A stretch of 22,461 bases of DNA from IMG/VR virus record IMGVR_UViG_2657245448_000004; one strand, written 5' to 3'. The translations under genes and the position numbers were made by a program. The notes beneath the pieces are model-generated. The model made no database searches and was not told the origin of the DNA. It saw only the letters and a list, made by a program, of their open reading frames with translations. This stretch comes from a virus. Lineage: Duplodnaviria; Heunggongvirae; Uroviricota; Caudoviricetes. The stretch's first letter is position 1. The number at the start of each line of letters is the position of its first letter. This document shows, piece by piece, positions 1-22,461 of the stretch.

Positions 1-102
1 TTTTGGATGTATGATACTTTCCCGTCTAAGAAAAAGATCTGTGAACTAAATAAAGAATTGAGAAAGATTAAGATTCCTGAGTGATTATACGCCTAATCAG
101 TA

Positions 103-2004: not shown

Positions 2005-2907
2005 TTAACCCTCCAGTGCTTTTTCAGCCAGGGTGATTACTTCAGCGAGATTTTCATCCGTTACTTCACCAAGTTTCCTGGCTCCCTGTTTTTCCAGAAT
2101 TGCAATAGCTTCTGCCCGGTAACCCCCTTTTGCTAACTGGAGGATCAACCCTTCAGCTTGTTTGCGTAGTGCCGCGAAATCAATTGTATGGTCATCTTTG
2201 GCGTCATTATTCTGGCTGGAATTTGCTGTGTCTCTGCGTGCAAATTCTTCCTGCAGCTGAAGGTACTCAACACGGTTGGTCTCGATATGGCCTTTTTTCA
2301 GCATCTCGTTCAACTTGCGTAAGGTGTGGAGTTCACTGGCTGCTGTGCCGGATACATTTTTGACGTAAAACGGCCCCGTGCGTTCTCCATCTTTGTTACT
2401 GGCCTTTTTCGGCTTAACTTCATCACGCCCATCCGCAGGTGCATCAAGTAGCTGCTCGGCAAAAGCACGTCGCTCGCCGATGGTTGGCAGGTCGTCCCAG
2501 AACTTAAGGATGTTACGGGACAGGTCCAGGAGAGCAGGTTTAAGCAGCGCCCTGGCTCGTTTGACGCCCTGCAATGCGCTGTCGAGAGCATCAATCTGAA
2601 CTACTCGTTTATCGCCTTCAGCATCACGGTAGGCAACAGCACGTTGCAGCATGTCTTCTGTGATAGGGGTGGCTACTGGGTAGAAACCAGCCAGTGCGAT
2701 AACGTCGCTGAACTCCAGATCATCCAGTGTCATTGCCGCTGACATATTTTCAGTTTCAGTTGCTGTATCCCGACATTCCTGCACTCGTGAAATCGTGTCA
2801 GGATGCATAACAATACCTGATGCCATTGTGCGGATAAGACGTTCAAGCAGCGCATTATGTTGTGCCAGAAGTTGATTATTAAGTTCGAGACTGGTTTCTA
2901 AACTCAT
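2005..2907 (-). CDS. hypothetical early-left operon protein (function not recognised)
   Basis: 300-aa ORF tightly packed between the small membrane ORF (ATGA overlap) and the nuclease gene. Charged, helical-looking composition; no motif I can name. Confidence 0.55.
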
Positions 2908-3074
2908 ACTGTGGTCCTCGCTACAAGGAGAATGAAAGTGATGATCAGACCGAGCGCAGTGGCAACGGCCAGACCGGTCATCAAATCGAAGTTTTTACGG
3001 CGATAACGGAGAACATCGCGCCCCGTCAGTCGATAGAGGTGTTCAGGTTTCATCGGTTGTATTCCTTTTTTCAT
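2904..3074 (-). CDS. small membrane protein (56 aa), first gene of the early-left operon
   Basis: Not in the ORF track (under 60 aa). Hand translation of the minus strand: [56 protein letters not shown], with one hydrophobic C-terminal helix. Its TGA stop overlaps the ATG of the 2005..2907 gene, suggesting translational coupling. Confidence 0.45.
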   Translation of the reverse strand: MKKGIQPMKPEHLYRLTGRDVLRYRRKNFDLMTGLAVATALGLIITFILLVARTTV

Positions 3075-3110
3075 ATCGGGGAGCGCGCTGTTGCGAGTGC
3101 GCTTTCAGAC

Positions 3111-3138
3111 ATAAAAAAGCCCGTCATTTGCGGCGGGC
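3111..3138 (-). terminator. putative intrinsic terminator (minus strand) upstream of the early-left operon
   Basis: Hairpin GCCCG...CGGGC at 3119..3138, followed on the minus strand by a 6-nt U-run (plus-strand A-run 3113..3118). Confidence 0.4.
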
Positions 3139-3277
3139 AAAGACTACACACAGCAATTACATGGATATCATCGAGTGCCTGCTTTTAACCACATCAGGCG
3201 AGGTGGTTCTCCTTGTACCCCTACAGTGAGAAATCGTCTAATATCTCTTCACCCCTACAGTTTGAGAGAGATTAGAT

Positions 3278-3847
3278 ATGTCTGAAGAAAAAGGAATTCT
3301 TTCCCGGATAACTGAATCGTTATCCGGCGTGGGAGGAGCAATTAAAGGCGCGGTTGGAGCAGCAAGAGAGATTCAGAATCTGACTGTCGACTATGCAGTT
3401 AAAGAGAAGACGCACACCTTACTCGATAAGCTAATGGATGTTCAGATGCAGCAAATGTCGCTTCAGGAGCTGCTGATTGCGGCTAAGGAGAAAATTGTTG
3501 AACTGGAAAATGAGAAAGTAAAGCAAGAGAACTGGGCCGCTGAAGCGGCGAGCTATGAACTTTACCAGCCTATGCGGGGTACTCTGGTCTATCGCAGCAA
3601 GCTTTCTGCAGATACTGACCAATCTCCGGTTTATATTTGTCCCAATTGCTACGAGCAAAAGAGAAAATCTATATTGCAAGCGGAAGGTCTGGTTATTAAG
3701 CCAGGCCTTGGGCGAGCCGTTAATATGGTTTGTTCGCACTGTAGGGCTTCCTATCTGTTCAACCGAAATGCTTTAGAGGCCAGACTGCCTGCTGAAGATG
3801 AAAATCCGGGGAAGGCAATCACGGATTACGATCCTTACAACCAGTAA
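3278..3847 (+). CDS. hypothetical protein: Gly-rich N-terminus, coiled-coil, C-terminal zinc-ribbon-like CxxC...CxxC; candidate accessory/defence gene
   Basis: 189-aa ORF with a GA-rich SD-like stretch (GAGAGAGA) just upstream of the ATG. Heptad-like charged segment around residues 40-90; CPNC at residues 121-124 and CSHC at 152-155. Opposite strand to both neighbours and convergent with the repressor gene. Confidence 0.75.
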   Translation: MSEEKGILSRITESLSGVGGAIKGAVGAAREIQNLTVDYAVKEKTHTLLDKLMDVQMQQMSLQELLIAAKEKIVELENEKVKQENWAAEAASYELYQPMRGTLVYRSKLSADTDQSPVYICPNCYEQKRKSILQAEGLVIKPGLGRAVNMVCSHCRASYLFNRNALEARLPAEDENPGKAITDYDPYNQ

Positions 3848-3896
3848 TTTCTTTAAGCATGGGTACCCTTCCGGCCACCCAGAGTTAAAGGAACTA

Positions 3897-3925
3897 AGCG
3901 CCCCATCGTCGGGGCGTTTCAACTT
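3897..3925 (+). terminator. putative intrinsic terminator for the 3278..3847 gene
   Basis: 6 to 8-bp GC-rich stem (cgcccc / ggggcg, loop atcgtc) followed by TTTC, about 50 nt after the stop codon. Confidence 0.4.
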
Positions 3926-4154
3926 GCGTGACTTATCAGTTCGTCGCGGTGTTGTCCTCTACGCTTACCGTACGCATACGGACTCGGCGCTTACCTCGAT
4001 CCCATCGGGTGCCATTTCATTTTGCCAGGAGTACTGCGGCTTACCTGTCACGCGGTTCAGTTTGTTAAAGAGCTGGTATTAAAAAACGCATTAATTATGC
4101 GGTATCGTATTTATATGCGTTATGGGATTTTGCGTCAATACGAAAATGAATTAT

Positions 4155-4192
4155 TTTGCAAATAAGAAAACCGCCCTTGTGGAGAGCGGTTT
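4155..4192 (-). terminator. putative intrinsic terminator downstream of the repressor gene
   Basis: Stem aaaccgc / gcggttt (4168..4174 with 4186..4192), 11-nt loop, followed on the minus strand by a T-rich tract (TTTCTTATTT); about 30 nt past the repressor stop. Confidence 0.45.
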
Positions 4193-4222
4193 GATCAGAA
4201 GTAAGTTATCAGACTGTAAAGG

Positions 4223-4897
4223 TTAGTACATGCGTAGCGCGGATTTGGCGATCCCCGCCACGTAATGGATTTTTTCAATGTTTTCGCGTGGTACTCTGAC
4301 TGGTGGATGATCTTCATTTACAGACATTAGATGGAACAGGCCATCGCGTTCGAACAAGAAGGTTTTAACCATGACCTCACCGTCCCGGGTAACCACAAGT
4401 ACTTCATCACCAGGAGTGTAGTCGTGGTTGGGTTCGACGATTACGAACTCACCCTCTTTGATTCTAGGCATCATTGAATCACCAACACATTTCAGGGCGT
4501 ATGCATCTTCATCCTTTGTCGGCCAGTATATGAAACCATCACTGCTACCTACTGAATATTGGGTGTCGCTCCAAAGTCCTCCAACGCCTAGCTGAGTGTT
4601 TCCCAAAACAGGTACTTTATTAAACCTAAGAGAAATATACGTTTTTATACCCGTCGCGTCCTCTTTCTCCATTTCTTGAAGGCTCCTTTCTGCCAGGTCT
4701 ATTGGTGACACGTGGAAGTAGTCGGCGATCTGCTTTAACGTTGCGTATTTCGGATCTTTCACCTCTCCTGATACCAGCCTGTGTAGCGTTGGTTGGTTCA
4801 GTTGTAACCGACGTGCCAGCTCAGTTATCGAGCTTATCTTGGCTTTGTCCATCAGGTACTTGATGTTTTGAGAAAGGATATCGGTAGTATCAATCAT
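4223..4897 (-). CDS. CI-like repressor (N-terminal HTH, C-terminal S24/LexA-type peptidase domain)
   Basis: 224-aa ORF. N-terminal HTH-like segment (SSITELARRLQLNQPTLHRLVSG) and C-terminal autocleavage-type domain with Ser/Lys motifs (CVGDSMMP ... EVMVKTF). Divergent from a Cro-like gene. Confidence 0.9.
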   Translation of the reverse strand: MIDTTDILSQNIKYLMDKAKISSITELARRLQLNQPTLHRLVSGEVKDPKYATLKQIADYFHVSPIDLAERSLQEMEKEDATGIKTYISLRFNKVPVLGNTQLGVGGLWSDTQYSVGSSDGFIYWPTKDEDAYALKCVGDSMMPRIKEGEFVIVEPNHDYTPGDEVLVVTRDGEVMVKTFLFERDGLFHLMSVNEDHPPVRVPRENIEKIHYVAGIAKSALRMY

Positions 4898-5038
4898 TTG
4901 GATTCATCCATGTTGTATACAGGGACGGTGATTATGCGTTATCGGATATTTTAATCCAGGATGATATAGAATTGCCGTATTGCTGAATAATCCGTTTTCG
5001 TATAAATTTGCGCTATAGACGAAAGTGGAGACTTAAAT
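4898..5038. promoter_or_regulatory. immunity switch region with divergent promoters and operator-like repeats
   Basis: 141-bp AT-rich gap between the divergent repressor and Cro-like genes. Similar motifs TATAGAATTGCCGTAT (about 4964..4980) and TATAAATTTGCGCTAT (about 5001..5017); SD GGAG at 5027..5030 ahead of the Cro ATG. Exact -35/-10 elements not resolved. Confidence 0.5.
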
Positions 5039-5239
5039 ATGTCCGGACTAACACCACAAGAGATGGTCAAAAGCTTGATTGATTCAGGGTATACCCAAAA
5101 CCAAATTGCCGAAATTGCAGGCGTGAAGCAGTCTTCTATTAGTCGGCTTCTCACCGGGGTTCATTCTGACCCTCGCTTTTCTACAGTACGTGCGATAGAA
5201 AAGCTTTTTCAGGAAGTGACAGCTAGACAAAAGGCGTAA
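5039..5239 (+). CDS. Cro-like HTH regulator
   Basis: 66-aa ORF with an HTH-like segment (YTQNQIAEIAGVKQSSISRLLTG), divergent from the repressor and heading the rightward operon. Confidence 0.8.
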   Translation: MSGLTPQEMVKSLIDSGYTQNQIAEIAGVKQSSISRLLTGVHSDPRFSTVRAIEKLFQEVTARQKA

Positions 5240-5242
5240 CCC

Positions 5243-7504
5243 ATGTCTGATAACAAACCATGGGGAGCTACGCCCGATGAGTGGTTCCACTTCGATCTGG
5301 TGTTGGGGATGACAGACAGGCTTTTACCTGTGGTGTCCAATCCCTGTGCAGAACTGTCGCCTAATAGCAAGCTGTCTCATAATTTCGGCAAAACCCCCAG
5401 TCGCTACAATGGCCAACGTAAGGTTGTTGGTATCCCCGACTGGGCTAACTATGTTGTTACGGAAAACGATTTTGCCCGGTGGTCGAACGAACCCGATTAC
5501 GGTATTTGCGTTCGTACTGGCGACGGGGTGGTGGCTCTGGACTGCGATATCAATGACGCCGGGATGCAGGAGATCGTACGCAATATTATCCTGTCATGCC
5601 TGGGGGAACTTCCGCCACGTCGCTGGCGGGCTGACAGTCATAAATGCCTGTACCTGATTGCTGTTGATGGCGACTACCGTAAACGTGGTCACCGCCTGGA
5701 AGGCGAAAACAAACAAATAGAGCTGCTCGCTAAGGGCCAGCAGTTTGTGGCTTGTGGTACCCATCCGGCAGGCGAACGTATTCAGTGGGACTGCGGTCTG
5801 CCCGGCGAACCTCTGAAAATTACATCTGAACAGCTCGAAAGCCTGTGGCAGCGTCTGGCGGATAACTTACCCGTGAAAGACAGCTATACCGCAGGTGCAG
5901 GACGTCAGCGTGATCTTTCCTGTGTTGATCCTTCCGCGACAGATGATGTCGCCGACTGGCTTGACGCGAACGGGTGGACTCTGTCAGTCAGCTCTGATGG
6001 TTCCCGCAATCTGAAACCGTTTCGGGATGAGTCAGAATACAGCAACGGTTGCAGCGAAACATCCATTAAGTATTTCCCAAAAGGGACGGGGGGATTTGAA
6101 CAGGGACATTTTAAAAGCATGCACAACACCGATGCGGGGCTTACTGATGCCGACTGGCTGGAAGGCTACGGCTATACGCAATCCCTGTTCGAAGATCTCA
6201 CGGTGGTTGAAGATGGCGATAAGCCTGAATTTACCGATATTAATACAGATATGACAGCTCATTTTCTGGAACGCTTTATCTACGTCATCGAGGGTGACCA
6301 GGTATGTGATCTTAGCCGACCGCCATATCAGTGCATGATGGATATGAAGTCGTTCAAAAACCTGATGGCGCCTTACCAGTTCCCGCCAGAAGGGAAAGGG
6401 CAACCAACTCCCGCAACCAAACGGTGGATAGAGCATCGGCATAAGAAGATTGCTGAGACGACAGGCTATAAGCCCGGTGCGGGACGTATTATCGAGCGTT
6501 TCGACGGGCGGTTTGAGATAAACGAATTTTATATGCCTGAGCATCCACGTACAGCGGATACAAGTAAGGTGTCCACGTTCCTTAATCATATGGCGTATCT
6601 GGTACCTGATGCCTGGCAGCGCGAGTTTTTCATCGCCCGTCTGGGGTGGATGGTTCAGCGTCCGGAGCGTCGATGCCCGATTTCTATTCTGCATGTGGCT
6701 TCCGCACATGGTACGGGCAGAGGATGGGTCAGCCAGTTAATGGAGCGCGTGCTTGGTCCGTGGAACTGTGCTCGTACTCGCATGAAGATCCTGTGCGATA
6801 ACCAGTTCCATGACTATCTGTACAATACGCTTCTATGCACCATTGACGAGGTGCGCGAAAATGATAAGCGGTATGAGGTGAACGATAAGATCCGTGACGT
6901 GCTGACAGAACCACGGTTTGAAGTGAACCGCAAATATGGCAGCAAAAAAACGATGGATATATACACCGGCTTTCTGTTCTACACCAACCACTTTGATGCG
7001 CTGGCGCTGCCAGAGGAAGACCGACGTATCGCTGTGCTGGGGGGCCCTGACTTCGCCGCAACTGAAGAGCATTACGCCAGCCTGTACGGTGCGCTAAGCG
7101 ACAGCGACTTTATCGCCCAGGTGTACTGGTATCTGATGGGCGTTGACCTGTCTCGCTTTAACTGGCAGCGCGCCCCCGAGACGAAAGAACGCCTTCTGAT
7201 GATTGAAAGCAATAAGAGCGATGTGGAGGCTGCTCTTATTGAAATCCTGGATAATCCGCCTGTGCCAGCAATGACTTATCAACAAATTGTTAACGCAATA
7301 CTGGCAGAAGCAGGAATGGATGTAGAAATTAACCAGAAGCATATTACTCGCATTTTGAAAGAAAGAACAAAGCGGGAACCCGTACGCGTAAAAATTGACG
7401 GGTTTGTATATAGGATTTGGATTCTTGTAAAAAATAACGATTTCAGCAACGAAGAATTGCGCGAAATATATAAATCTTGCGAAATTTTGCAATCTGGATT
7501 GTAA
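5243..7504 (+). CDS. replication primase-polymerase (AEP-type N-terminus) fused to a helicase/NTPase-like C-terminal domain
   Basis: 753-aa ORF starting 3 nt after the Cro stop. N-terminal AEP-like motifs: hhhDhD (VVALDCDIND) and sGxxH (ACGTHPAG). C-terminal P-loop-like segment SAHGTGRGW about 40 aa before a Walker-B-like LLCTIDEV. Confidence 0.8.
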   Translation: MSDNKPWGATPDEWFHFDLVLGMTDRLLPVVSNPCAELSPNSKLSHNFGKTPSRYNGQRKVVGIPDWANYVVTENDFARWSNEPDYGICVRTGDGVVALDCDINDAGMQEIVRNIILSCLGELPPRRWRADSHKCLYLIAVDGDYRKRGHRLEGENKQIELLAKGQQFVACGTHPAGERIQWDCGLPGEPLKITSEQLESLWQRLADNLPVKDSYTAGAGRQRDLSCVDPSATDDVADWLDANGWTLSVSSDGSRNLKPFRDESEYSNGCSETSIKYFPKGTGGFEQGHFKSMHNTDAGLTDADWLEGYGYTQSLFEDLTVVEDGDKPEFTDINTDMTAHFLERFIYVIEGDQVCDLSRPPYQCMMDMKSFKNLMAPYQFPPEGKGQPTPATKRWIEHRHKKIAETTGYKPGAGRIIERFDGRFEINEFYMPEHPRTADTSKVSTFLNHMAYLVPDAWQREFFIARLGWMVQRPERRCPISILHVASAHGTGRGWVSQLMERVLGPWNCARTRMKILCDNQFHDYLYNTLLCTIDEVRENDKRYEVNDKIRDVLTEPRFEVNRKYGSKKTMDIYTGFLFYTNHFDALALPEEDRRIAVLGGPDFAATEEHYASLYGALSDSDFIAQVYWYLMGVDLSRFNWQRAPETKERLLMIESNKSDVEAALIEILDNPPVPAMTYQQIVNAILAEAGMDVEINQKHITRILKERTKREPVRVKIDGFVYRIWILVKNNDFSNEELREIYKSCEILQSGL

Positions 7505-7770
7505 AAAGGTGACGGCTAGGTGACGGCAAAACGCTTAAGCGTCACCTTAAAAAGTATATATAAAACAATGGGAAATGTGCTAAAGGTGACAGGTGACGGC
7601 AGAATTTAAAACTATATACGCGATAGTGTGTATTTTAGGTATTATACGATCGCTTATATATAGAGAACTAAAATCAACCGTCACCTGTCACCTAAAACAT
7701 CTTCAGGCCTTATATGGCGCGCTTTGCAGCAGGTGACGGATATGTAATTACGCGTCACCTAGCCGTCACC
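7505..7770. repeat. iteron array flanking an AT-rich core; putative replication origin
   Basis: About ten copies of the core GGTGAC(G/A)G in both orientations: direct at 7507..7517, 7518..7528, 7583..7592, 7591..7601, 7731..7740; inverted at 7539..7548, 7678..7693 (two copies), 7751..7760, 7761..7770. They flank a strongly AT-rich stretch (about 7549..7677) immediately after the primase gene. Confidence 0.7.
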
Positions 7771-7819
7771 CGGAAATTAACTTGAAAAAATTAGCAAATA
7801 ACTAAATGAGGATACGACG

Positions 7820-8110
7820 ATGTCAAAGATATTCCGCCAATGTATGCCTTACGGTATCCGCAAAACAGCTGAGGGGGCTTGGGAAGCATTCAACAGAGAC
7901 TACCAGCCCTTAGGGGAGGCTTTTTTCTTCAAAAGAGCACTAACGCAGGCCACTCGAGATGTGTTGGCGCCACCGCCGGTAACTCAGCGCGACGACTGTG
8001 TATGGCTGTATAGCGATATCGAGCACCCGATGCACTCTGAGGCTTACTGGAAAGCGTATTGCCAGCGGCTTAAACATCTTTCTAACCTCAAAATGAAAGA
8101 TGAACGGTAA
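7820..8110 (+). CDS. hypothetical protein upstream of the Q antiterminator
   Basis: 96-aa ORF with SD GAGGA at 7808..7812, in the position that Nin-region genes occupy in lambdoid phages. No recognisable motif. Confidence 0.55.
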   Translation: MSKIFRQCMPYGIRKTAEGAWEAFNRDYQPLGEAFFFKRALTQATRDVLAPPPVTQRDDCVWLYSDIEHPMHSEAYWKAYCQRLKHLSNLKMKDER

Positions 8111-8135
8111 GTAGCAAAACGTAGAGGTCAGAGCT

Positions 8136-8558
8136 ATGCGTGATATTCGACTGGTTTTAGAGCGATGGGGGGGCTGGGCTGCGAGCGAAGGTTGCAGTGT
8201 CTACTATCCACCTGTTTCCGCTGGATTTAAGAATCTGCTACCTGCAACGCAAGCCGGGCGGCTGAAGTGCAGTGACAATGACGGTCTGATCATCAGCTCT
8301 GCTATGAACTGCCTGAAGAAAAAAGATCCGTACCTGTGTACGCTCCTTGAGTGGCATTACATCCAGGCGATGCCTGTGAGGGCTATGGGTGTGAAGCTCG
8401 GCGTATCACACACTCAAGTTCTGAAGAGGCTCCAGGCTGCAGAGGGATTTATCGACGGCTGCCTGGCTATGCTGGACGTGGTTCTGGAAATGGATCAAGC
8501 AGTTCAGTCAAAGCCTAAGGCTATCAGGACTTTGCGAAGGAGCTGCCCGGCGGCATAA
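8136..8558 (+). CDS. Q: late-gene antiterminator, Q-like
   Basis: 140-aa ORF. N-terminus MRDIRLVLERWGGWAASEG and the QKAEGFIDGCLAMLDVVLEMD segment match my recollection of the prophage Q antiterminator family. It lies directly upstream of the lysis cassette with an intervening regulatory region. Confidence 0.75.
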   Translation: MRDIRLVLERWGGWAASEGCSVYYPPVSAGFKNLLPATQAGRLKCSDNDGLIISSAMNCLKKKDPYLCTLLEWHYIQAMPVRAMGVKLGVSHTQVLKRLQAAEGFIDGCLAMLDVVLEMDQAVQSKPKAIRTLRRSCPAA

Positions 8559-8609
8559 TATCCAGTAATCAATCACGTAAGGGAATCAGATGGTATTCAG
8601 GATTGCCGT

Positions 8610-8650
8610 AAACACCTGACGGCTTCAGGTATCAAGGTAAGATAAAAAAT
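8610..8650 (+). promoter_or_regulatory. candidate late promoter (PR'-like) downstream of Q; position tentative
   Basis: Weak sigma70-like elements: CTGACG (8615..8620), 17-bp spacer, TAAGAT (8638..8643). Placement is by synteny with Q-dependent late promoters; an alternative promoter between the two terminators cannot be excluded. Confidence 0.2.
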
Positions 8651-8711
8651 AGTTGTGGAATTCCAAAAAGCCGATTAGCCTGATATCTGTTGAAAACAGT
8701 TCATCACGAAG

Positions 8712-8739
8712 AGGCTTCCGCAAGGGGGCCTTTTTTATT
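8712..8739 (+). terminator. intrinsic terminator (tR'-like) downstream of Q
   Basis: 8-bp stem (aggcttcc / ggggcct, with two G-U pairs), GCAA tetraloop, followed by TTTTTTATT. Confidence 0.6.
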
Positions 8740-8966
8740 GCCCCATTCTGGGGAAAAGTTAATAAAACAGGGCTTTCGCTGCGAAAAAACGCTATGCAGT
8801 TTTTGCCCTTTTTTATGCACCTTTTATTCACTCGAATTTCGTCATTCTGGACCACTTAAGTTGATTAAATAGGCCTTTCATCGCAAATCTATTGCGAGCG
8901 GGGATCGTGTGGTTCCTATAACGTACATTATGTTAAATAACTTCCTTTTTTAACAAATTTAACAAG

Positions 8967-8990
8967 GTTCGCTATGGCGAACTTTTTTTG
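8967..8990 (+). terminator. second intrinsic terminator in the Q-holin intergenic region
   Basis: Perfect 6-bp stem GTTCGC / GCGAAC with loop tatg, followed by TTTTTTTGTATT. Confidence 0.55.
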
Positions 8991-9090
8991 TATTCAGGGC
9001 CCACCGAAGGACGGCTCATAACCCAATCCTACGGGCGTATACGCAGGGCCCGCCTTTCAACAACACCCCGTAATGGCGGAGGTGGGAAGT

Positions 9091-9432
9091 ATGAAAATGC
9101 ACAATGCTCCTCATTCCTGGCCTGACTTACTGGAACTCTTACAAAGTTGGTGGCGTGGAGATACGCCGTTGGGCGCAGTGGTTATGTCAATTGTTATGGC
9201 TGGCTTGCGCATTGCCTATTTTGGCGGTGGCGGCGGCTGGAAACGAAAAACGCTTGAGATTTTGCTCTGTGGTGCTCTGACGCTGACTTTTGCATCCGCT
9301 CTTGAGTATGTCGGATGGCCTAAATCGCTTTCTGTTGCCATTGGTGGTGGTGTTGGGCTGATCGGTGTCGATGCTATTCGTGGGGCTGCAATGCGAGTAA
9401 TCGGTAACAAGTTTGGTGGCTCTAAGGAGTAA
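9091..9432 (+). CDS. S: holin with lambda S-like dual-start (MKM) motif
   Basis: The ORF track starts at 9073, but a strong SD (GGAGG, 9078..9082) sits 8 nt ahead of the ATG at 9091. The product then begins MKMHNAPHSW, as lambda S begins MKMPEKHDLL (from memory), and has hydrophobic TM segments. It ends 3 nt before the endolysin gene. Confidence 0.8.
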   Translation: MKMHNAPHSWPDLLELLQSWWRGDTPLGAVVMSIVMAGLRIAYFGGGGGWKRKTLEILLCGALTLTFASALEYVGWPKSLSVAIGGGVGLIGVDAIRGAAMRVIGNKFGGSKE

Positions 9433-9435
9433 TTC

Positions 9436-9912
9436 ATGCAGACACTAAATTCCCAACGTAAAGCTTTCCTGGATATGGTGGCATGGTCAGAAGGAACGGA
9501 TAACGGGCGACAACCGACACGTAATCACGGTTATGACGTTATCGTCGGAGGTGAGTTGTTCACTGATTACTCCGATCACCCTCGCAAACTTGTCACGCTA
9601 AACCCGAAGCTTAAATCAACAGCCGCAGGCCGGTATCAGCTTCTTTCACGCTGGTGGGATGCCTACCGCAAGCAGCTTGGCCTGAAAGATTTTTCGCCAG
9701 AAAGTCAGGACGCTGTGGCGCTGCAGCAGATTAAAGAGCGTGGCGCTTTACCGATGATTGACCGTGGCGATATTCGTCAGGCAATCGACCGTTGCAGCAA
9801 TATCTGGGCGTCGTTACCTGGTGCAGGTTACGGTCAGTATGAACATAAAATCGGTGACCTGATTTCCAGGTTTAAAGATGCTGGTGGGGTGGTAAATGAA
9901 GCTGACTTATAA
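9436..9912 (+). CDS. R: endolysin, lambda R-like lytic transglycosylase
   Basis: 158 aa, same length as lambda R and near-identical over long stretches as I recall it (NSQRKAFLDM.AWSEGTDNGRQ.TRNHGYDVIVGGELFTDYSDHPRKLVTLNPKLKST.AGRYQLLSRWWDAYRKQLGLKDFSP). SD AAGGAG upstream. Confidence 0.95.
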   Translation: MQTLNSQRKAFLDMVAWSEGTDNGRQPTRNHGYDVIVGGELFTDYSDHPRKLVTLNPKLKSTAAGRYQLLSRWWDAYRKQLGLKDFSPESQDAVALQQIKERGALPMIDRGDIRQAIDRCSNIWASLPGAGYGQYEHKIGDLISRFKDAGGVVNEADL

Positions 9913-10420
9913 GATTGTCATCGCGGCATTTTTCTTCTCTGCCTTTGGGGCGCTCGTCTGGTCTGCAAACCATTACCACAGCAAGTATCAGGCAGAAAAG
10001 TTGCGGGCTGATAAAGCGGAAGGTGAAGCTGAATATCAAGGGAAAGTGATAGCTAATCAGGCATTAAACTTCAATCGTTTTAACCAGATAGCAGAAAACG
10101 CAAGCCGATTAAATTCTCTGGTCGACATCGGTCACGAGAAGACAGTCATCAAATACCGTGAGGTTCTGCTCCGTGAAAAGAACTGTGATTTCCCTGTTCC
10201 TGCTGATATTGCTGTCGGGTTGCTCAACTACGCGAACCGTTTACGCGCCAGCGCATTGCACGCCGATTCCGGGTACATTGACCCAGCCGGTGATCGTGCC
10301 ACTACCACCAGAACGTTGACATATTGCCAGGCTGTTCTGTGGATTAACCCATTGTTGGCAGCCATCGAGAAGGCGAATAACCAGTTGGCTGGTGTCCGAC
10401 AAATAGAACAGTCCCGGTAA
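9896..10420 (+). CDS. Rz: Rz-like inner-membrane spanin (i-spanin)
   Basis: 174-aa ORF overlapping the endolysin 3' end by 17 nt. N-terminal TM helix (IVIAAFFFSAFGALVW) followed by a charged, coiled-coil-like periplasmic domain; contains an embedded +1-frame lipoprotein gene. Confidence 0.75.
   Translation: MKLTYKIVIAAFFFSAFGALVWSANHYHSKYQAEKLRADKAEGEAEYQGKVIANQALNFNRFNQIAENASRLNSLVDIGHEKTVIKYREVLLREKNCDFPVPADIAVGLLNYANRLRASALHADSGYIDPAGDRATTTRTLTYCQAVLWINPLLAAIEKANNQLAGVRQIEQSR
10173..10319 (+). CDS. Rz1: Rz1-like outer-membrane lipoprotein spanin (o-spanin), embedded in Rz in the +1 frame, GTG start
   Basis: Hand translation of the +1 frame inside Rz: (M)KRTVISLFLLILLSGCSTTRTVYAPAHCTPIPGTLTQPVIVPLPPER. 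Lipobox LLSGC, proline-rich mature part, SD GAGG (10160..10163) 9 nt before the GTG. Absent from the ORF track (48 aa). Confidence 0.7.
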   Translation: MKRTVISLFLLILLSGCSTTRTVYAPAHCTPIPGTLTQPVIVPLPPER

Positions 10421-10481
10421 TAGCATTACAGAAGCTCTTCCAGGAGGGGCTTCGATAATGACCTGATAACTGGAAAATAAA

Positions 10482-11054
10482 ATGACTAAGAAGCTGAAAG
10501 CAAAACACGAGGTGTTTTGTCGCGAGTTTCTTGTCGATCTGAATGCTACACAAGCAGCTATTCGCGCAGGCTACGTCTCCAGGCGAGCACATGTTACGGG
10601 GGCTGAACTATACGGTAAACCTGAGATACGCGCCCGTATTAACGAGCTAAAGCAGGAGCGTATTGATCAACTGGGCATTGATGCGAATTATGTGCTGATG
10701 CGACTGGTTGAGATCGACAGGCTCGATGTGGCTGACATCCTAGAGGACGATTTAAGTATTAAGCCTCTGTCTGCGTGGCCGGAATCGTGGCGTCGGTACC
10801 TGAGTGGATTTAACCTCGCTGAAATGTTTGAGGGGCGAGGAGATGACAGAGAAATGGTCGGGATCCTTAAAAAGATTAAGTGGCCTGATAAGGTTAAAAA
10901 CCTTGAGTTGCTTGGGCGTCATGTTTCTGTTCAGGCGTTTAAAGACAACGTCAAAAATGAAGTGACTGGCGCTGATGGAGGACCAGTCAGAACAGAAATT
11001 ACCAACTTAACGCCGGAGCAGGCTGCAGAGGCGTATAGAAAAATGATGGGCTAA
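10482..11054 (+). CDS. terminase small subunit
   Basis: 190-aa ORF immediately upstream of the large terminase. N-terminal motif [20 protein letters not shown] resembles the small-terminase family as I recall it. Confidence 0.75.
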
Positions 11055-11056
11055 GT

Positions 11057-12679
11057 ATGCCGTTACCATTCCCCTTCGATTTTAAACATCCTGATTACCA
11101 GATGGTTTTTGAATGGCGGATGGAACGCCTACAGCGCATTCGCCAGAATCCTGAAATATTGCCTGCACTAAAACAGTTTTACCGAACCAATCCGGCTCAG
11201 TTCATCATCGACTGGGGCATGACAACGGACCCGCGTAATATTGATTATGGCCTGCCGGTGACCATTCCGTTTTTACTCTTCCCTAAGCAGGAGGAGTGGA
11301 TCCACTGGATTATGGAACGCTGGGGCAATCGGGAGAATGGTATTACCGAAAAATCCCGTGAAATGGGGCTCAGTTGGACCGCGATCGGACTGGCATGTTC
11401 GCTTTGTCTCTTCAACAAAGAAATGGTTATCGGTTTCGGCTCCCGTAAAGAGGAATACGTCGACAGCACCGGTGACCCGAAAGCATTGTTCTGGAAGGCG
11501 CGCAAGTTCGTGGAAACACTGCCTGTAGAGTTTCGCGGTTCGTGGAGCGAGAAGAAGCACGCGCCATATATGCGTGTTGAGTTTCCTGAAACTGGTGCCG
11601 TTATCAAAGGCGAGGCTGGCGATAATATTGGTCGTGGTGACCGTACCACGCTTTATCTGGTTGATGAGGCTGCATTCCTTCAGCGTCCTCTGCTGATTGA
11701 TGCGGCGTTGTCACAAACGACGCGTTGCCGTATCGACCTGAGTTCAGTTAACGGCATGGCTAACCCGTTCGCTCAGAAGCGTCATGGCGGGAAGATACCG
11801 GTATTCACATTCCACTGGCGGGATGATCCTCGCAAGGATGAAGAGTGGTATCGCAGGGAATGCGAGAAAATCGATAATCCGGTGGTGGTGGCACAGGAAC
11901 TTGATCTGAACTACAGCGCATCAGCGGAAGGCGTCCTGATTCCATCCGAATGGGTACAGGCTGCCGTTGATGCGCATATCAAACTGGGTATCCAGCCAAC
12001 AGGCAAACGACTTGGCGCGATGGATGTCGCCGACGAAGGCAGGGACAAAAATGCCTTTTCCACCCGTCATGGCTTCCTCCTGGAAAATGTGCGGGAATGG
12101 TCCGGTGTGGGCAGCGACATTTATCAGTCCGTCAAGAAGGTTTTCGGCTTTTGCGAACAGGACAACCTCGAAGAGTTTCGCTTTGACGAGGACGGGCTGG
12201 GCGCTGGCGTTCGCGGCGATGCACGCGCTATCAACGAACTGCGTAACGCTGCGCGTCGACCGTCAATACTTGCCACACCGTTTCGAGGTAGTGGCGCGGT
12301 ATTTGATCCGGATGATGAAGCTGTTCGCGGGGACAACGGGCAAGCCGCACGTCTGAACAAGGACTTCTTCGCTAACGCCAAAGCCCAGAGCTGGTGGCGG
12401 TTACGTAAACTTTTTCAGAATACCTGGCGCGCCGTGGTTGAAGGTATGGCTTACAACCCGGACGAAATCATCTCAATCAGCAGTAGCATGGCACTCAAAG
12501 ATAAACTCATCATCGAGCTTTCGCAGCCGACCTATTCCATTAATGGTGTGGGAAAAATAGTTATTGATAAACAGCCTGATGGAACCCGATCGCCAAACCT
12601 TGCCGACTCGGTGATGATCAACTATGCCCCAATGAATTCAGCCCTGAACATCTGGGAGCTGCTAGGGAGACAGGCCTGA
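11057..12679 (+). CDS. terminase large subunit
   Basis: 540-aa ORF between the small terminase and the portal, with start and stop tightly coupled to both neighbours. Size and position are typical; no specific motif verified. Confidence 0.75.
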
Positions 12680-14145
12680 TGGCACGAAACAAACAAGCCC
12701 TGCGGCGAACTGCGCAGGCCACAGCTGATGGTTATGAGAATTTTATTGCCCGCGTAGGGATGCAGACACCTAACCAGCACTCAGCATCCACCTACCGGGC
12801 TAATTTCACCAGTCGTAACCGCATGCTGGTGGAATGGTCCTATCGTTCGTCCTGGATCATCGGCGAAGCAGTCGATGCTATCCCGGATGATATGACCCGC
12901 AAAGGCATTCGCATCACTTCGGAAATTGATGCAAAAGATCGTGGCATTCTCGAATCACAACTGGATGAGTTGCAAATCTGGGATGCGCTGAATGACGTGC
13001 TGAAATGGTCGCGCCTCTACGGCGGCGCGGTGGGTTTCATCATGATTGAGGGGCAGGCACCAATGACCCCGCTGCGACCCGAAACCATCGGTAAGGGCAA
13101 GTTTAAGGGAATTCTCCCGCTCGACCGCTGGATGATTGACCCGGTACTGACCCGCCGCATTAAAGATATGGGGCCGGACCTGGGTAAACCTGAGTTTTAC
13201 GATGTGGTGACCACAGCAACGGGAATTCCTGCCTGGCGCATTCATCACAGTCGACTGATTCGCTTTGATGGCGTCACGCTGCCATTTCAGCAGAAGATGA
13301 CCGAGAACGAATGGGGAATGTCGGTTGTAGAGCGTATCTGGGATCGTCTTACCGCGTTCGACAGCGCTACTGTCGGCGCGGCGCAGCTGGTCTACAAAGC
13401 GCATTTGCGTACCTACAGCGTGGAGAAGCTACGCGAGCTTATCGCACTTGGTGGTCCTGCGTATGAAGCGTTGCTGAAGAATATTGACCTGATTCGACAG
13501 TTCCAGAGCAATGAAGGCATGACTCTCATGGACTCGCGGGATAAGTTTGAAACCCATCAGTACAGCTTCAGTGGTCTGGATGACATCCTTTCACAGTTTG
13601 CAGAACAGATTAGTGGCGCTGTTGGTATCCCACTGGTGCGGTTGTTCGGACAGTCCCCGAAGGGATTTTCTACCGGCGATGCAGACCTTGCCAACTATTA
13701 CGACCGGGTAAGCTCGTTGCAGGAGAGGCGTTTACGTCTTCCGGTGCGGCGGATACTGGACATCATGCATCGTTCGGAACTTGGCAAGCCGCTGCCGGAC
13801 GATTTCACGTTTGAGTTTAACCCGCTCTGGCAAATGTCTGATGTCGATCGCTCAACGGTGGCGTTAAACACTACCAACGCAATCAGTACAGCGCTGGGTG
13901 ATGGTCTGATGACACTGAAAGCCGCTATGACTGATTTGCGAGAAAATTCTGACGTAACCGGCATCGGGGCATCCATTACCGACGAGGACATCGAGAATGC
14001 CGAAGATGAAGCGCCGCCCGGCATCGGCGAACCTGATGACGAACCGCAGGAACCGTCAGGCGGAAATCCGGTATCGAACCAGCCTACGCAGGATAGCGCG
14101 GGCGGTCGGGGACATCGTAAATGGTCACTACGATGGTTCAAATGA
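12679..14145 (+). CDS. portal protein
   Basis: 488-aa ORF whose ATG overlaps the terminase stop (TGATG). Position and size fit a portal; acidic C-terminal tail. Confidence 0.7.
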   Translation: MARNKQALRRTAQATADGYENFIARVGMQTPNQHSASTYRANFTSRNRMLVEWSYRSSWIIGEAVDAIPDDMTRKGIRITSEIDAKDRGILESQLDELQIWDALNDVLKWSRLYGGAVGFIMIEGQAPMTPLRPETIGKGKFKGILPLDRWMIDPVLTRRIKDMGPDLGKPEFYDVVTTATGIPAWRIHHSRLIRFDGVTLPFQQKMTENEWGMSVVERIWDRLTAFDSATVGAAQLVYKAHLRTYSVEKLRELIALGGPAYEALLKNIDLIRQFQSNEGMTLMDSRDKFETHQYSFSGLDDILSQFAEQISGAVGIPLVRLFGQSPKGFSTGDADLANYYDRVSSLQERRLRLPVRRILDIMHRSELGKPLPDDFTFEFNPLWQMSDVDRSTVALNTTNAISTALGDGLMTLKAAMTDLRENSDVTGIGASITDEDIENAEDEAPPGIGEPDDEPQEPSGGNPVSNQPTQDSAGGRGHRKWSLRWFK

Positions 14146-14770
14146 CAGTATCACGGAAATTATTGAGGCGCTGGAGCGCTACAGTGAAATCATCACCCCC
14201 TGGGCGACAAAGGTCGCGGAAAACTTTACCGCCGATATTGTGCGCAAGAATGATGAGCAGTGGCGTAAACACAGCAAAACCATCAGCCGTGAGCTACGCA
14301 ATCTGGTAAACAGTGCCCCGCCAGGGCAGGTGATGAAATCCATCGTTGCTGAACAGGTTAAGTACATTAAATCGCTACCCCTCGAGGCGGCTGACAGGGT
14401 GTACGACATCCAGAATCGGGCGATTGAAGCTGTTGTGACCGGTGGGAGAGCGGAACATTTTGCTAAAGAAATAGCCGCATCGGGTGATATAGCAAAGTCC
14501 AGAGCTGACCTGATTGCCCGTACTGAACTTGGACGTGCAACCGGCGCGCTGGATCAGGCGCGTGCGCTGGCAATTGGTTCGAATGGTTATATCTGGCGTA
14601 CAGCCGAAGATGGTGACGTCAGGCATTCTCATCGGGAAATGGAAGGTAAATTTGTCGAATGGGGCAAACCTCCAACGCTTGATGGCATGACCGGTCACGC
14701 TGGCGAGCTCCCGAATTGCCGCTGTTATAAAGAAATCGTTTTTCCCACCTCCCATTCTTATCCCGCCTGA
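13997..14770 (+). CDS. head morphogenesis protein (Mu F / SPP1 gp7-like); start uncertain
   Basis: The C-terminal region (LIARTELGRATGALDQA ... WRTAEDGDVRHSHREMEGKFVEWG) resembles the MuF-like domain. The ORF as drawn overlaps the portal 3' end by 149 nt, so the true start may lie further downstream. Confidence 0.65.
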   Translation: MPKMKRRPASANLMTNRRNRQAEIRYRTSLRRIARAVGDIVNGHYDGSNDSITEIIEALERYSEIITPWATKVAENFTADIVRKNDEQWRKHSKTISRELRNLVNSAPPGQVMKSIVAEQVKYIKSLPLEAADRVYDIQNRAIEAVVTGGRAEHFAKEIAASGDIAKSRADLIARTELGRATGALDQARALAIGSNGYIWRTAEDGDVRHSHREMEGKFVEWGKPPTLDGMTGHAGELPNCRCYKEIVFPTSHSYPA

Positions 14771-14784
14771 ATCGCAGGTAACAC

Positions 14785-16005
14785 ATGAAATATTTTTTCA
14801 ATACCCGGCTGGGGGAAACCCGCTATCAGCTGGCTGACGGCTCGTTGCTGTGCAAAGACGTGCCGATAGGACGAACAGGTAAGCAGCTCTATGGTGCTGA
14901 TGACCTGCCAAAACTGAAACCCGATAAGTTCGGTGAAATAGTCGTCACGCGTTCTCCTGAGCAGGTATTCCATCCGGCCACGCTCGCCTCATTCGAAGGG
15001 ATGAGCATCACGATCCTGCATCCTGAAGATGAAAACGGGAATGTGCGGCTGGTAAATCCCGAGAACTGGAAAGAGCTTGCTGTCGGGCACCTCCAGAATG
15101 TCCGGCGCGGGACGGGTGAGCAGTCTGATTTGATGCTGGCTGACCTTATCGTCAAAGACGAAAACGCCATTCAGCTTATCGAAGATGGCCTGCGAGAAGT
15201 GTCGTGCGGCTATGACGCGGAGTACGAGCAGACCGAGCCAGGTAAAGCCGGGCAGGTCGATATTACCGGAAACCATGTGGCTCTTGTCCCCAAAGGCAGA
15301 GCCGGAAATCGTTGTGCAATTGGAGACAGAGACACAATGGCAAATCAAAAGAAAAACTGGTGGAACCGCATGCGTGCAGCCATCAAGACAGGAGATGCCG
15401 ACACCATGAACGAACTGGTGGAGTCGGCTCCCGCATCGGTTACAGGAGATGAGGGGGATTTGCCGCAGGGCGTTAATCTCAACATCAACCTGTCCCCGCA
15501 GCAACCACTACCGGACAAAGCACCAGAGATGGGTGGAGGTCCAACCGGCGACAGTGATGATGACCTCAAAACATTACTGAAAGCCCTGCTGGCTAAGCTG
15601 GAAGGAAATGCCACGGGCGATAACGATAATAAGCCTGACGATAATCCGACCGGTGACGGCGAGGACGATGAAGAGGAAACCACGATTACTGGTGACTCAG
15701 CCTGGCGTGCCGAAGTTATCGTTCCGGGTATCGATCTGAGCCGTAAGATGAAACCGACCGAGTTCAAACGCGAGGTTCTGGCTTCCGCAGATAAAACGCT
15801 GGTTCGCCAGATTGTCGGTGATGCGGATATCCGCAAATTGCCGAAACAATCGGTCGACATGGCGTTTAATGCCGTGTCTGAGATTGCCAAAGGGCGAAAC
15901 ACCCGCGCCACCACCGGCGATGCACAGCGCCTAAACATGGGCATGACCAGTATCGCTTCCCTGAACAAACAAAACGCTGAATTCTGGGCAAACCGTAAAG
16001 GGTAA
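14785..16005 (+). CDS. putative prohead scaffold/protease-like protein
   Basis: 406-aa ORF between the MuF-like and capsid genes, with an acidic, low-complexity central region (GDSDDD, DNDNKPDDNPTGDGEDDEEE) typical of scaffolds. The family label (DUF2213-like) is from memory. Confidence 0.5.
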   Translation: MKYFFNTRLGETRYQLADGSLLCKDVPIGRTGKQLYGADDLPKLKPDKFGEIVVTRSPEQVFHPATLASFEGMSITILHPEDENGNVRLVNPENWKELAVGHLQNVRRGTGEQSDLMLADLIVKDENAIQLIEDGLREVSCGYDAEYEQTEPGKAGQVDITGNHVALVPKGRAGNRCAIGDRDTMANQKKNWWNRMRAAIKTGDADTMNELVESAPASVTGDEGDLPQGVNLNINLSPQQPLPDKAPEMGGGPTGDSDDDLKTLLKALLAKLEGNATGDNDNKPDDNPTGDGEDDEEETTITGDSAWRAEVIVPGIDLSRKMKPTEFKREVLASADKTLVRQIVGDADIRKLPKQSVDMAFNAVSEIAKGRNTRATTGDAQRLNMGMTSIASLNKQNAEFWANRKG

Positions 16006-16008
16006 AAA

Positions 16009-16515
16009 ATGAATAATGTATTTCTGTACCGGATGCCTGTTGGCATTGCCGGGGCTGTCTCTCGCCCGCAGGACTTAACCGTCGAACCGGTGGTCCTTAA
16101 ATCCGATAACGCCTTCGCTGCCTATGGCCTGGCTGGTAAATACGATGATGACGGTTTTTTCGTGCCGCTGGCAGATGGTGATACCGCAGACAAGGTAAAG
16201 GGGATCTACGTGCGCCCTTATCCGACCACGTCGCAGCCGGACATGGTTCGCCAGGTGGGAACAGGCAAGAACTTCCCGGGCGACGCCATGAAGCGTGGCT
16301 ACGTGACTGTTAATCTCGGTTCTGATTTTGATGCCAGCACCATCAAAAAAGGCGACCCGGTATACGTTGTCGTCTCCACTGATGAATCCATCAAAGTGCC
16401 GCTGGGGGGATTCATGTCCACGTCAGTCAGTGGCAAAAATGTGGTGCTGACCAACGCTGAATTCACAGGTGCCGGTGATGCTGACGGCAATGCAGAAATT
16501 TCCTGGAAGATTTAA
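16009..16515 (+). CDS. putative head decoration/cement-like protein
   Basis: 168-aa ORF starting 4 nt after the scaffold-like gene and directly upstream of the major capsid gene. Function is assigned by position only. Confidence 0.45.
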   Translation: MNNVFLYRMPVGIAGAVSRPQDLTVEPVVLKSDNAFAAYGLAGKYDDDGFFVPLADGDTADKVKGIYVRPYPTTSQPDMVRQVGTGKNFPGDAMKRGYVTVNLGSDFDASTIKKGDPVYVVVSTDESIKVPLGGFMSTSVSGKNVVLTNAEFTGAGDADGNAEISWKI

Positions 16516-16526
16516 GGAACAGACGA

Positions 16527-17468
16527 ATGATTACTTTTGATCAGGCAACCGTTGACAGCTCTGGTGCCTTTCTCATCGGGGAGCTGGAGCGACTCGACCA
16601 GACGCTGAACCTGCCACTGGTGGGGTACACCTGGACCCGCGATATTCAGTTGCGTGAAGATGTCTCTATCGCAGATGACATTTCCAGCTGGACGAATACC
16701 AGCTTCGCCGCTGCGGGTACTGGTGCAAATCCGAATGGCAAAAACTGGGTAGGCAAAGACTCAACCGCTATTGCTGGCGTGAACGTGGATATCGGCAAAT
16801 CCGGTAACCCGCTGAACCTGTGGGGGATGGAACTTGGCTGGACGGTCATAGAATTGCAGGCTGCTCAGCAGGTCGGCCGCCCGATTGATACGCAGAAGTA
16901 TGACGGTATGCAACTGAAATGGCAGATGGATAACGATGAACAGGTATATGTTGGCGATTCCGCATTAAACCTGAAAGGCCTTGTTACCCTGGACGGCGTG
17001 CCTGTCAACAACGCTGCCAAAACGTGGGCAACCTCAACACCGGACGAAATCCGCGCAAGCATTAACCAGGTGCTGTCTGATGCGTGGGCCGCTTCCGGTT
17101 ACTCTGTGGTTCCGCGTGATTTGCTGATCCCGCCTGAGCAGTTTGCTCTGTTGTCCAGCATCATCGTTTCATCTGCGGGTAACCAGTCCCTGTTGACGTA
17201 TCTTCAGACCAACACCATCAGCTATCACCAGAACGGTGTTCCGCTGAATATCCGCGCGGTTAAATGGCTGAAAGGCCGTGGTGTGAGGAAAAAGGATCGC
17301 ATGGTTGCGTACACCAACGATAAAAAATACGTTCGCTACCCGCTGGTTCCGCTTCAGAGCGTGCCGGTGCAGTATCGCGGTCTGTATCAGATCGTCACTT
17401 ACTACGGCAAGCTGGGTGCGGTTGAGCCAGTGTACAAAGAAACCATTTCGTACGTTGATGGCATTTAA
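16527..17468 (+). CDS. major capsid protein (putative)
   Basis: 313-aa ORF in the canonical position after the scaffold and decoration genes, followed by a GC-rich stem-loop. Family recognition is tentative. Confidence 0.6.
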   Translation: MITFDQATVDSSGAFLIGELERLDQTLNLPLVGYTWTRDIQLREDVSIADDISSWTNTSFAAAGTGANPNGKNWVGKDSTAIAGVNVDIGKSGNPLNLWGMELGWTVIELQAAQQVGRPIDTQKYDGMQLKWQMDNDEQVYVGDSALNLKGLVTLDGVPVNNAAKTWATSTPDEIRASINQVLSDAWAASGYSVVPRDLLIPPEQFALLSSIIVSSAGNQSLLTYLQTNTISYHQNGVPLNIRAVKWLKGRGVRKKDRMVAYTNDKKYVRYPLVPLQSVPVQYRGLYQIVTYYGKLGAVEPVYKETISYVDGI

Positions 17469-17476
17469 CAGCCACA

Positions 17477-17495
17477 TGGCCCCCTGGCGGGGCCA
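17477..17495 (+). other. GC-rich stem-loop after the major capsid gene
   Basis: 7-bp stem tggcccc / ggggcca with loop ctggc, 9 nt past the capsid stop and lacking a U-tract. A possible transcript-stabilising or partial-termination element. Confidence 0.35.
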
Positions 17496-17509
17496 TTAAG
17501 GATGACCCG

Positions 17510-17731
17510 ATGGCAAAAAATAATGCAGTAATACACGTACATACCCCGTTTGTGCTCACGCTTCCCGACGGTTCACGGCGCGAGTTTGTTAAAGGCCGTC
17601 ATGCTGTGGAGGAAGACGTTGCCACGCACTGGTTCACTCGTGCGCACGCGGAAGTATCCGTTGGCAAAGCCACAGACGCGCGTAACGAGGTAAAAAATGC
17701 CAAAGAATCAAAATCTGCCAGCGGTAAGTGA
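17510..17731 (+). CDS. small hypothetical head-module protein
   Basis: 73-aa ORF with an SD-like AAGGATGA upstream; sits between the capsid and connector genes. Confidence 0.45.
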
Positions 17732-18104
17732 TTTTCGCCGCGACTTCCCGCAGTTTGCTGACCCTGCCAAATATCCCGAAGCGCAAATCCAGTTTCGTCT
17801 GAATCTGGCCGATGAACTGCTGAGCGAAAACGTCACCGGCAAAAAGTTGTTTCCGTATTTTGCCGGATTGTTCGTTGCACACTACATGACGCTCTGGGCG
17901 GCAGACAGCCGGGCGATGCTGGCTGGCGGGCCGGGCGGTTCAACCAATGGTGTTCAGTCCTCAAAGTCCGTTGACAAGGTAAGCGTCAGCTATGACACCA
18001 GCGCGACGCTGAATCCTGATGCAGGTTTCTGGAATAACACCCGATATGGCGCTGAATTTTATCAGTTGATCACGATGTTCGGTGCAGGCGGTCGCCAGCT
18101 ATGA
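17697..18104 (+). CDS. putative head-tail connector/adaptor protein
   Basis: 135-aa ORF with SD GAGG at 17685..17688; overlaps the upstream ORF by 35 nt and the downstream ORF by ATGA. Function assigned by position. Confidence 0.5.
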
Positions 18105-19569: not shown

Positions 19570-19572
19570 GCT

Positions 19573-20718: not shown

Positions 20719-20728
20719 GGGGAAGTGA

Positions 20729-21169: not shown

Positions 21170-21172
21170 TGC

Positions 21173-21625: not shown

Positions 21626-21813
21626 CGTTTAACAGCCTGCCGGACGGGCTGTCCTACCTTCTCAATCCGGTTGACGCCGGGTTAATTCCTTATACAGCAC
21701 TTAAAGATGGCTCTGTCGATTTGTATGACATTGCTCTCTTGAATGACCATCTGGCGGTAAAAGCGGATAACCAGCGACGCATTGAGAAATGGAGAGAGGA
21801 TAATGAACGCTGA
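21173..21813 (+). CDS. putative chaperone frameshift-fusion product (gpGT-like) made by -1 slippage at TTTTTTG (21574..21580)
   Basis: Heptamer T_TTT_TTG lies in the zero frame (codons TTT 21575..21577, TTG 21578..21580). The -1 frame is open from 21580 to a TGA at 21811..21813 and encodes AYTPYQHDAEPATGLTFNSLPDGLSYLLNPVDAGLIPYTALKDGSVDLYDIALLNDHLAVKADNQRRIEKWREDNER. Confidence 0.5.
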
Positions 21814-22460: not shown

Positions 22461-22461
22461 G

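Follow-up and report, generated by a model that had tools for sequence, protein, structure and literature searches.

Gene content of the locus

The window analysed in this work is the whole 22,461-nt stretch of the IMG/VR record IMGVR_UViG_2657245448_000004, which derives from a virus of the Caudoviricetes. It carries a 189-aa ORF of the rip1 family on the plus strand, and the neighbours of this ORF are all encoded on the minus strand (Table 1). Two of them lie to the left (2904-3074 and 2005-2907), followed further left by DUF2800 and Enc34-type ssDNA-binding genes, and one lies to the right, a gene for a CI/LexA-type prophage repressor, which is convergent with the rip1 ORF. The gene map and the Peptidase_S24 and HTH matches of the repressor bear out the initial annotation of this DNA, which had described the ORF as lying on the opposite strand to both neighbours and facing a CI-like repressor gene.

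Table 1. Features of the rip1 locus and related features of the window (nucleotide positions of the window unless residues are indicated)
Feature	Position	Strand	Remarks
56-aa ORF	2904-3074	-	phrog_11981, E=1.4e-36; hydrophobic C-terminal stretch GLAVATALGLIITFILLVA
RprA-like RNA element	3109-3222	-	flanked directly by rip1 and by the first early-left ORF
Upstream block, presumed promoter/regulatory region	3167-3277	+	travels with the gene
TAATAT	3239-3244		flanked by direct repeat ACCCCTACAGT at 3217-3227 and 3251-3261
SD-like purine run GAGAGAG	3264-3270		7 nt 5' of the ATG
rip1-family gene	3278-3847	+	ORF with ATG start, 189 aa
Gly/Ala-rich amphipathic helix (predicted)	residues ~7-34		helix 7-34 in the AF2 model
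Long helix (predicted)	residues 39-90		helix 39-90 in the AF2 model
Beta / four-Cys zinc-ribbon-like domain (predicted)	residues 93-162		beta domain 93-162 in the AF2 model
GC hairpin, possible weak or bidirectional terminator	3899-3925	+	6-bp stem 3899-3904 / 3911-3916; read from sequence
Leftward leader, untranslated	3899-4073	-	GGTAAGC at 4045-4039, 3995-3989 and 3969-3963
47-aa ORF	4022-4165	+	hypothetical protein in ON470588; spans OL/pL; probably not a gene
Leftward early promoter, pL-like (predicted)	4097-4151	-	TTGACG 4138-4133, 17 nt, TATAAA 4115-4110
Operator-like 14-mers at pL	4097-4110, 4115-4128, 4138-4151		three sites, overlapping pL
CI/LexA-type prophage repressor	4223-4897	-	Peptidase_S24 E=2.6e-18, HTH_26 E=3.7e-12; phrog_4 'transcriptional repressor'
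Exact ATRCGNNANNGNAT matches between cI and cro	4934-4947, 4990-5003
Small terminase gene	10482-11054
Portal gene	12679-14145

The 189-aa protein has a Gly/Ala-rich stretch at residues 15-29, contains C121, C124, C152 and C155 as its only cysteines, and ends in an acidic 25-aa tail with DYDPY as the last residues. Its homologues share the N-terminus MS(E/D)EKGI, which corroborates the start codon. The ORF shows 100% identity to a protein in four phage records, where it is labelled 'hypothetical protein' or 'uncharacterized protein'.

Positions 1-22038 of the window are 100% identical to the Escherichia phages vB_EcoM-606R2, -689R2 and -611R5, and vB_EcoM-683R1 is 100% identical over 3278-22038. 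The match to the phage records breaks off at 22038, Ns occur in 22039-22053 right after the sequence GGAATTC, and the remaining bases, from 22053 to 22461, show 100% identity to yeeJ, a chromosomal adhesin gene. Intact prophages continue past 22038 with what is presumably the tape-measure gene and with baseplate genes. Since phage identity ends at 22038, with yeeJ beyond this point, and intact prophages continue otherwise, the window is either a contig that is chimeric or mis-joined, or a prophage that has been truncated.

To the left of rip1, the 56-aa ORF is the first gene of the leftward operon and is conserved in all relatives examined. The RprA-like element between these two genes matches Rfam RF00034 over the full model with a score of 50.2 bits (gathering score 70; E=9.5e-6 in a 251-nt search). 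The 3' half of the element, AAUUGCUGUGUGUAGUCUUUGCCCG...CGGGCUUUUUU, differs little from the consensus, ends in an intrinsic terminator and is conserved in distant phage relatives (L011). The segment 3113-3158 is 84.8% identical over 46 nt to the annotated chromosomal rprA, a match found in essentially every E. coli genome, and 167 genomes contain a copy in which 80% or more of the 71-nt query is covered. A mosaic breakpoint, at 3166, falls inside the element, which may be a phage-borne mimic of the host sRNA or simply a borrowed terminator.

Membership of the Rip1 family

The initial annotation recognised no characterised family in the 189-aa product and regarded it as novel. This part did not survive: the remote-homology and fold searches that it had proposed both found a characterised defence protein, Rip1, whose family has a name, a dissected mechanism and a cryo-EM structure (PDB 9oox). 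A phmmer search of the PDB sequences returned one entry, 9oox 'ring interacting pore 1 (Rip1)', with query residues 3-166 aligned to residues 3-162 of the 164 in chain 9oox_L (E=8.5e-48), and a search with the family profile gave the same entry with E=1.3e-52. The entry, released on 2026-02-04, is titled 'Cryo-EM Structure of the Escherichia phage HK446 Rip1 in complex with the Enterobacteria phage T6 small terminase'. HK446 gp37 (YP_007111990) is identical to the printed 9oox residues 3-162 and shares 87 of 164 residues (53%) with the window protein.

From the profile libraries scanned, PHROGs alone recognised the family (phrog_1244, 'unknown function', E=6e-40). The Pfam scan produced no family above the curated cut-off and only a zinc ribbon and a CRM1 repeat among sub-threshold matches (E<=0.1), the NCBIfam scan of the protein yielded no useful match, and PADLOC-DB v2.0.0 (2023), a library older than the description of Rip1, gave no match at E<=1.

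A translated search of the phage collection identified homologues in HK446 and ev099 (52-53% identity), in HK620, HK630 and HK629, where they are named HkaP, and in Pseudomonas D3112-like phages, where the homologue is orf25. By hhalign, HkaP and D3112 orf25 / MP38 ORF25 fall into this family (probability 99.6-100%, E=4e-25 and 2e-45); they are likewise opposite-strand morons, but are just ~30% identical to the window protein, and no individual characterisation of these homologues was found in the literature. With a cut-off of E<=1e-3, an exhaustive profile search revealed 3420 cluster representatives, a number which indicates that the gene is more than a chance ORF; almost all of them have ~150-175 aa.

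Across 49 diverse homologues Y93 and the four cysteines are invariant, and a SILQ motif is conserved along with them. Six further residues, W86, L95, G101, Y105, L133 and Q134, are nearly invariant in the family and are all present in the window protein. The two CxxC pairs noticed earlier, C121/C124 and C152/C155, are thus a family hallmark, and the Gly/Ala-rich N-terminus reported with them was also found, followed by a long helix in the AF2 model. The acidic tail makes the window protein 25 aa longer than HK446 Rip1, from which the D(Y/W)D.Y ending is absent. Because similar endings occur in D3112 orf25 (DWDGY) and in many other members, the tail is a family feature rather than an innovation.

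In the AF2 model two helices are followed by a beta domain (Table 1), with a pLDDT of 72 overall, 83-91 over residues 51-110 and low values (49-56) for the N-terminal helix. A Foldseek comparison of this model with the PDB gave 9oox_M as the best match (E=2e-10, TMt 0.88, rmsd 2.2 Å over 128 columns, 50% identity) and no second significant fold, the next match having E=0.38. The window protein is accordingly modelled with the Rip1 fold, a long helix plus a C-terminal beta / zinc-ribbon domain. The peak helical hydrophobic moment of the protein (0.41-0.42) falls within residues 7-39, and the value observed for residues 6-34 was reached by 160 of 5000 shuffles. A transmembrane-grade stretch was not found anywhere in the protein (maximum Kyte-Doolittle 19-mer average 0.88, no TM helix predicted). 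Over the N-terminal residues 1-35, 22 of 35 positions are identical to HK446 Rip1, as counted by eye in the alignment. The N-terminal amphipathic helix, which is the pore-forming part of Rip1, is predicted to be present in the window protein.

The window protein therefore resembles HK446 Rip1 (gp37; 9oox) in full-length homology, in fold and in a three-part architecture of amphipathic helix, long helix and four-Cys beta domain. It is close to certain that it belongs to the Rip1 family, and it carries the defining features of Rip1 as far as these are computable in silico.

Rip1 was described by Patel et al. (2026, Nature 651:1060), whose work is summarised in a 2026 review (PMC13434031). According to this review, Rip1 is harmless by itself and shows no toxicity, until ring-shaped late proteins of an invading phage, the small terminase or the portal, template a 12-mer Rip1 ring. 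Escape mutations were located in the portal for Pseudomonas phages and, for E. coli phages, in the small terminase, and the complex consists of 12 Rip1 monomers around an 11-mer small-terminase ring. The ring is contacted by the C-terminal half of Rip1, whereas the N-terminal part is an amphipathic helix; the complex contains a pore, with dye release from liposomes, holes in cells and premature lysis. The same review describes Rip1 homologues as widespread in Proteobacteria, chiefly in prophages (PMC13434031). A meeting report (PMC12908700) and a citing paper (PMC13601566) are in agreement with this mechanism. The mechanism and structure of the family were already published in 2026, and the gene is not new in this sense.

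Accessory distribution and regulatory surroundings

The distribution of the gene was analyzed in 5426 complete E. coli genomes using a query composed of the left-operon backbone, rip1 and the repressor gene. The backbone-spanning query had matches in 169 genomes, and this rip1 allele was present in 49, always as one chromosomal copy with 95-100% identity. All 12 sampled annotation rows from the 49 RefSeq carriers read 'hypothetical protein'. In KOr019, the flanks are 97-99% identical up to window position 3315 and from 3887, and the sequence between them encodes a 174-aa allele with 44.5% protein identity. STEC435 has no Rip1 and carries 288 bp of other sequence in place of 3167-3898, and 14EC029, also without Rip1, diverges from the window at 3166. 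NCTC9022 retains rip1 next to a different immunity region, with a breakpoint at 4073, the edge of OL. In more distant phages with this backbone, the corresponding position holds alleles of 64% and 51% identity. Examination of variability at the locus, suggested by the initial annotation, thus revealed an accessory (moron) gene that is kept, swapped or absent between near-identical flanks.

The abrupt end of the prophage copy at 22038, followed by Ns and chromosomal yeeJ, would also suit a decaying prophage in which rip1 persists as a non-functional relic. We consider this extremely improbable, because the ORF is intact, 100% identical in four phage records and 95-100% identical in the 49 complete genomes, and has retained every invariant residue of the family.

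The leftward early operon contains further variable cargo, including a TIR-like domain protein in vB_EcoM-611R5 (L001 3105-3866, left of the window), a NUMOD4-domain gene and an Ant antirepressor in STEC435 (L008 1-240 and 2480-2998), an Nmad5 nucleotide-modification protein in NCTC9022 (L009 1-581) and a Band_7 protein in a distant relative (L011 1746-2615). These genes may represent further defence or counter-defence functions.

The region upstream of rip1 travels with the gene. A block of ~105 nt (~3172-3277), in which TAATAT stands between two ACCCCTACAG repeats, shows a close alignment to the sequence preceding HK446 rip1, where a similar block with these repeats is found, and in STEC435 the upstream block and rip1 are missing together. 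HK446 is a lambdoid siphovirus, whereas the phage of the window has a module of DUF2800, Enc34-type ssDNA-binding protein, PolA and PrimPol genes and a sheath-type tail. As the block is conserved with HK446 while the proteins are just 53% identical and the phages are unrelated, rip1 is mobile as a cassette that includes a regulatory region of its own, and alleles are exchanged together with the upstream block. The promoter scan called no canonical sigma-70 promoter upstream of rip1; the TTGTAC at 3213-3218 and the TAATAT are 20 nt apart.

Two expression signals attributed to the gene in the initial annotation held up only in part. For the Shine-Dalgarno sequence, no more than a purine run is present, which is weaker than claimed. 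The downstream terminator corresponds to a GC hairpin (3899-3916) that begins 52 nt past the rip1 stop codon and is followed by TTTCAACTT, a T tail of poor quality; it was not among the terminators called by the scan. A prophage without rip1 retains the hairpin, with window 3899-4073 at 97% identity. Because related prophages without rip1 keep it, the hairpin belongs to the backbone and not to the gene.

On the other side of this hairpin, three operator-like 14-mers overlap a predicted leftward promoter, which the promoter scan missed because of the final A of its -10 hexamer. ATRCGNNANNGNAT is matched exactly at this promoter and at two sites between cI and cro, and nowhere else; the pattern was derived from these same sites, and the evidence is their clustering and not their count. 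The two clusters (4097-4151 and 4934-5003), with palindromic 14-mers of the ATGCGGTATCGTAT type, lie on both sides of the repressor gene. Judging from the sequence, a cluster downstream of cI combined with a near-consensus leftward promoter corresponds to an OL/pL arrangement. A leftward early transcript would then cross rip1 in the antisense direction before reaching the early-left genes, which depends on read-through of the weak hairpins at 4101-4087 and 3916-3899. On induction, such antisense transcription through rip1 may damp its expression.

Several other features mark the path of this transcript. The untranslated leader is 97% conserved in prophages without rip1 or with other immunity regions and contains GGTAAGC three times on the minus strand, and a strong terminator lies at ~3140-3112. 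Folding of a 211-nt leader (4105-3895, minus strand) gave a z-score of 0.11 and no support for a put/nut-like RNA, and an N-like gene was not found in the window.

We also considered whether the pL-antisense placement could work as an inbuilt switch that provides self-immunity, with a possible link to the adjacent RprA-like element. With pL off in the lysogen, Rip1 would be made. Upon induction, transcription from pL would run into rip1 in the antisense direction and silence the gene before the resident phage produces its own rings of small terminase and portal. The leftward transcript would end in or traverse the RprA-like 3' element, and its release as a phage-made mimic of the host sRNA would be possible. 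If such a switch existed, an anti-Rip1 protein would be unnecessary. The idea is conceivable, though on balance we find it doubtful.

The position of rip1 has close parallels in other phages. HK446 rip1 also lies antisense in the leftward early unit beside the immunity region, and the homologues of HK446, HK620 and HK630 are all found on the opposite strand between N and cIII. This slot on the opposite strand between N and cIII, inside the pL operon near the immunity region, is the one occupied by sieB in lambda and P22. SieB is an integral membrane protein that is reportedly expressed from the prophage with an outcome of the abortive-infection type. The shared slot, the annotation of HK620 hkaP as 'putative superinfection exclusion protein' and the modest 53% identity to the characterised Rip1 could point to a Rip1 homologue that has diverged into an early-acting, SieB-like exclusion factor targeting DNA entry or early gene expression. 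Such a divergence is very unlikely, given that the window protein has no Pfam match and hence none to any SieB model, and lacks a predicted membrane-spanning segment, whereas SieB is a membrane protein. Moreover, the family-invariant residues and the fold have all been retained, and the HK620 annotation has a positional basis only.

A different possibility is suggested by the D3112-type copies, which are opposite-strand inserts between terminase genes, in contrast to the copy of the window beside the repressor. Rip1 proteins bind terminase or portal rings, according to the review (PMC13434031), and the phage of the window encodes a small terminase and a portal of its own (Table 1). The protein could therefore serve the lytic cycle of its own phage, binding the resident small terminase or portal ring and timing lysis or regulating packaging, with defence being incidental. 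We regard this as highly improbable: the gene is dispensable, being absent, or replaced by the allele of 44.5% identity, in prophages whose flanks are 97-99% identical, and in every phage examined (HK446, HK620, HK630, D3112 and L010-L012) its direction opposes that of the early and late operons, a hallmark of lysogen-expressed morons.

Probable function and relation to known systems

Full-length homology to Rip1, the location of homologues in the sieB slot, and the pattern of presence, exchange and absence at the locus support the conclusion that this is very probably an anti-phage defence gene. These observations agree with the earlier proposal of an exclusion or defence moron in the repressor-proximal slot. 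We estimate a probability of about 85% that the ORF, a moron of a temperate phage or prophage of E. coli, encodes a functional abortive-infection defence of the Rip1 type that acts by pore formation; relic, SieB-like factor and lytic-cycle protein are quite unlikely even when taken together.

The mode of action proposed here is transferred from the characterised family, and this applies to expression in the lysogen, to the trigger phages and to pore formation by the window protein. A lysogen would produce the protein from its own upstream region as an inert soluble monomer or small oligomer. During the late phase of infection by a foreign phage, a ring of small terminase, which forms an 11-mer in the solved structure, or of portal protein would act as a template, and the C-terminal zinc-ribbon domains of ~12 Rip1 molecules would assemble around it. 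The N-terminal Gly/Ala-rich amphipathic helices, clustered in this way, would form a pore in the inner membrane, and the cell would be permeabilised and lysed before progeny mature, protecting the clonal population. The likely mechanism is pore-forming abortive infection and not classical exclusion of the Rex or SieB type.

Two other phage-defence proteins share elements of this logic. RAZR (ring-activated zinc-finger RNase; Zhang et al. 2026, PMC13017515) is a small zinc-finger immunity protein that assembles in a ring about large phage proteins which are themselves ring-shaped, the portal among them. It has the ring-sensing principle in common with Rip1 but is an unrelated protein with an RNase effector, which assembles as a 24-mer and inhibits translation instead of forming a membrane pore. 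RAZR was rejected as the identity of the window protein because it is a different protein; Rip1 is not mentioned in PMC13017515. The tail assembly blocker Tab of JBD26 (PMC10884400) also targets a late morphogenesis protein, but it has 83 aa and a partner, anti-Tab, and blocks tail assembly via the tape measure protein without a pore. Tab was considered since D3112 orf25 sits in the Tab slot, in line with the reported location of a Pseudomonas Rip1 where JBD26 carries Tab (PMC10884400 and PMC13434031), and was rejected as an unrelated protein with another target. The exclusion genes olg1 and gene 10 of Fc02 were likewise rejected, since these genes of a beetrevirus are located upstream of its repressor gene and belong to another family.

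Reasoning from position and architecture had thus reached the right functional class without a homology search, and the comparisons presented here change the annotation from 'hypothetical protein' to a Rip1-family defence protein. The locus also represents a second, non-lambdoid phage backbone in which the slot equivalent to that of sieB is filled by Rip1. The questions it raises are those of the 2026 work on Rip1, namely the trigger specificity of divergent alleles and the way in which a resident phage avoids its own Rip1.
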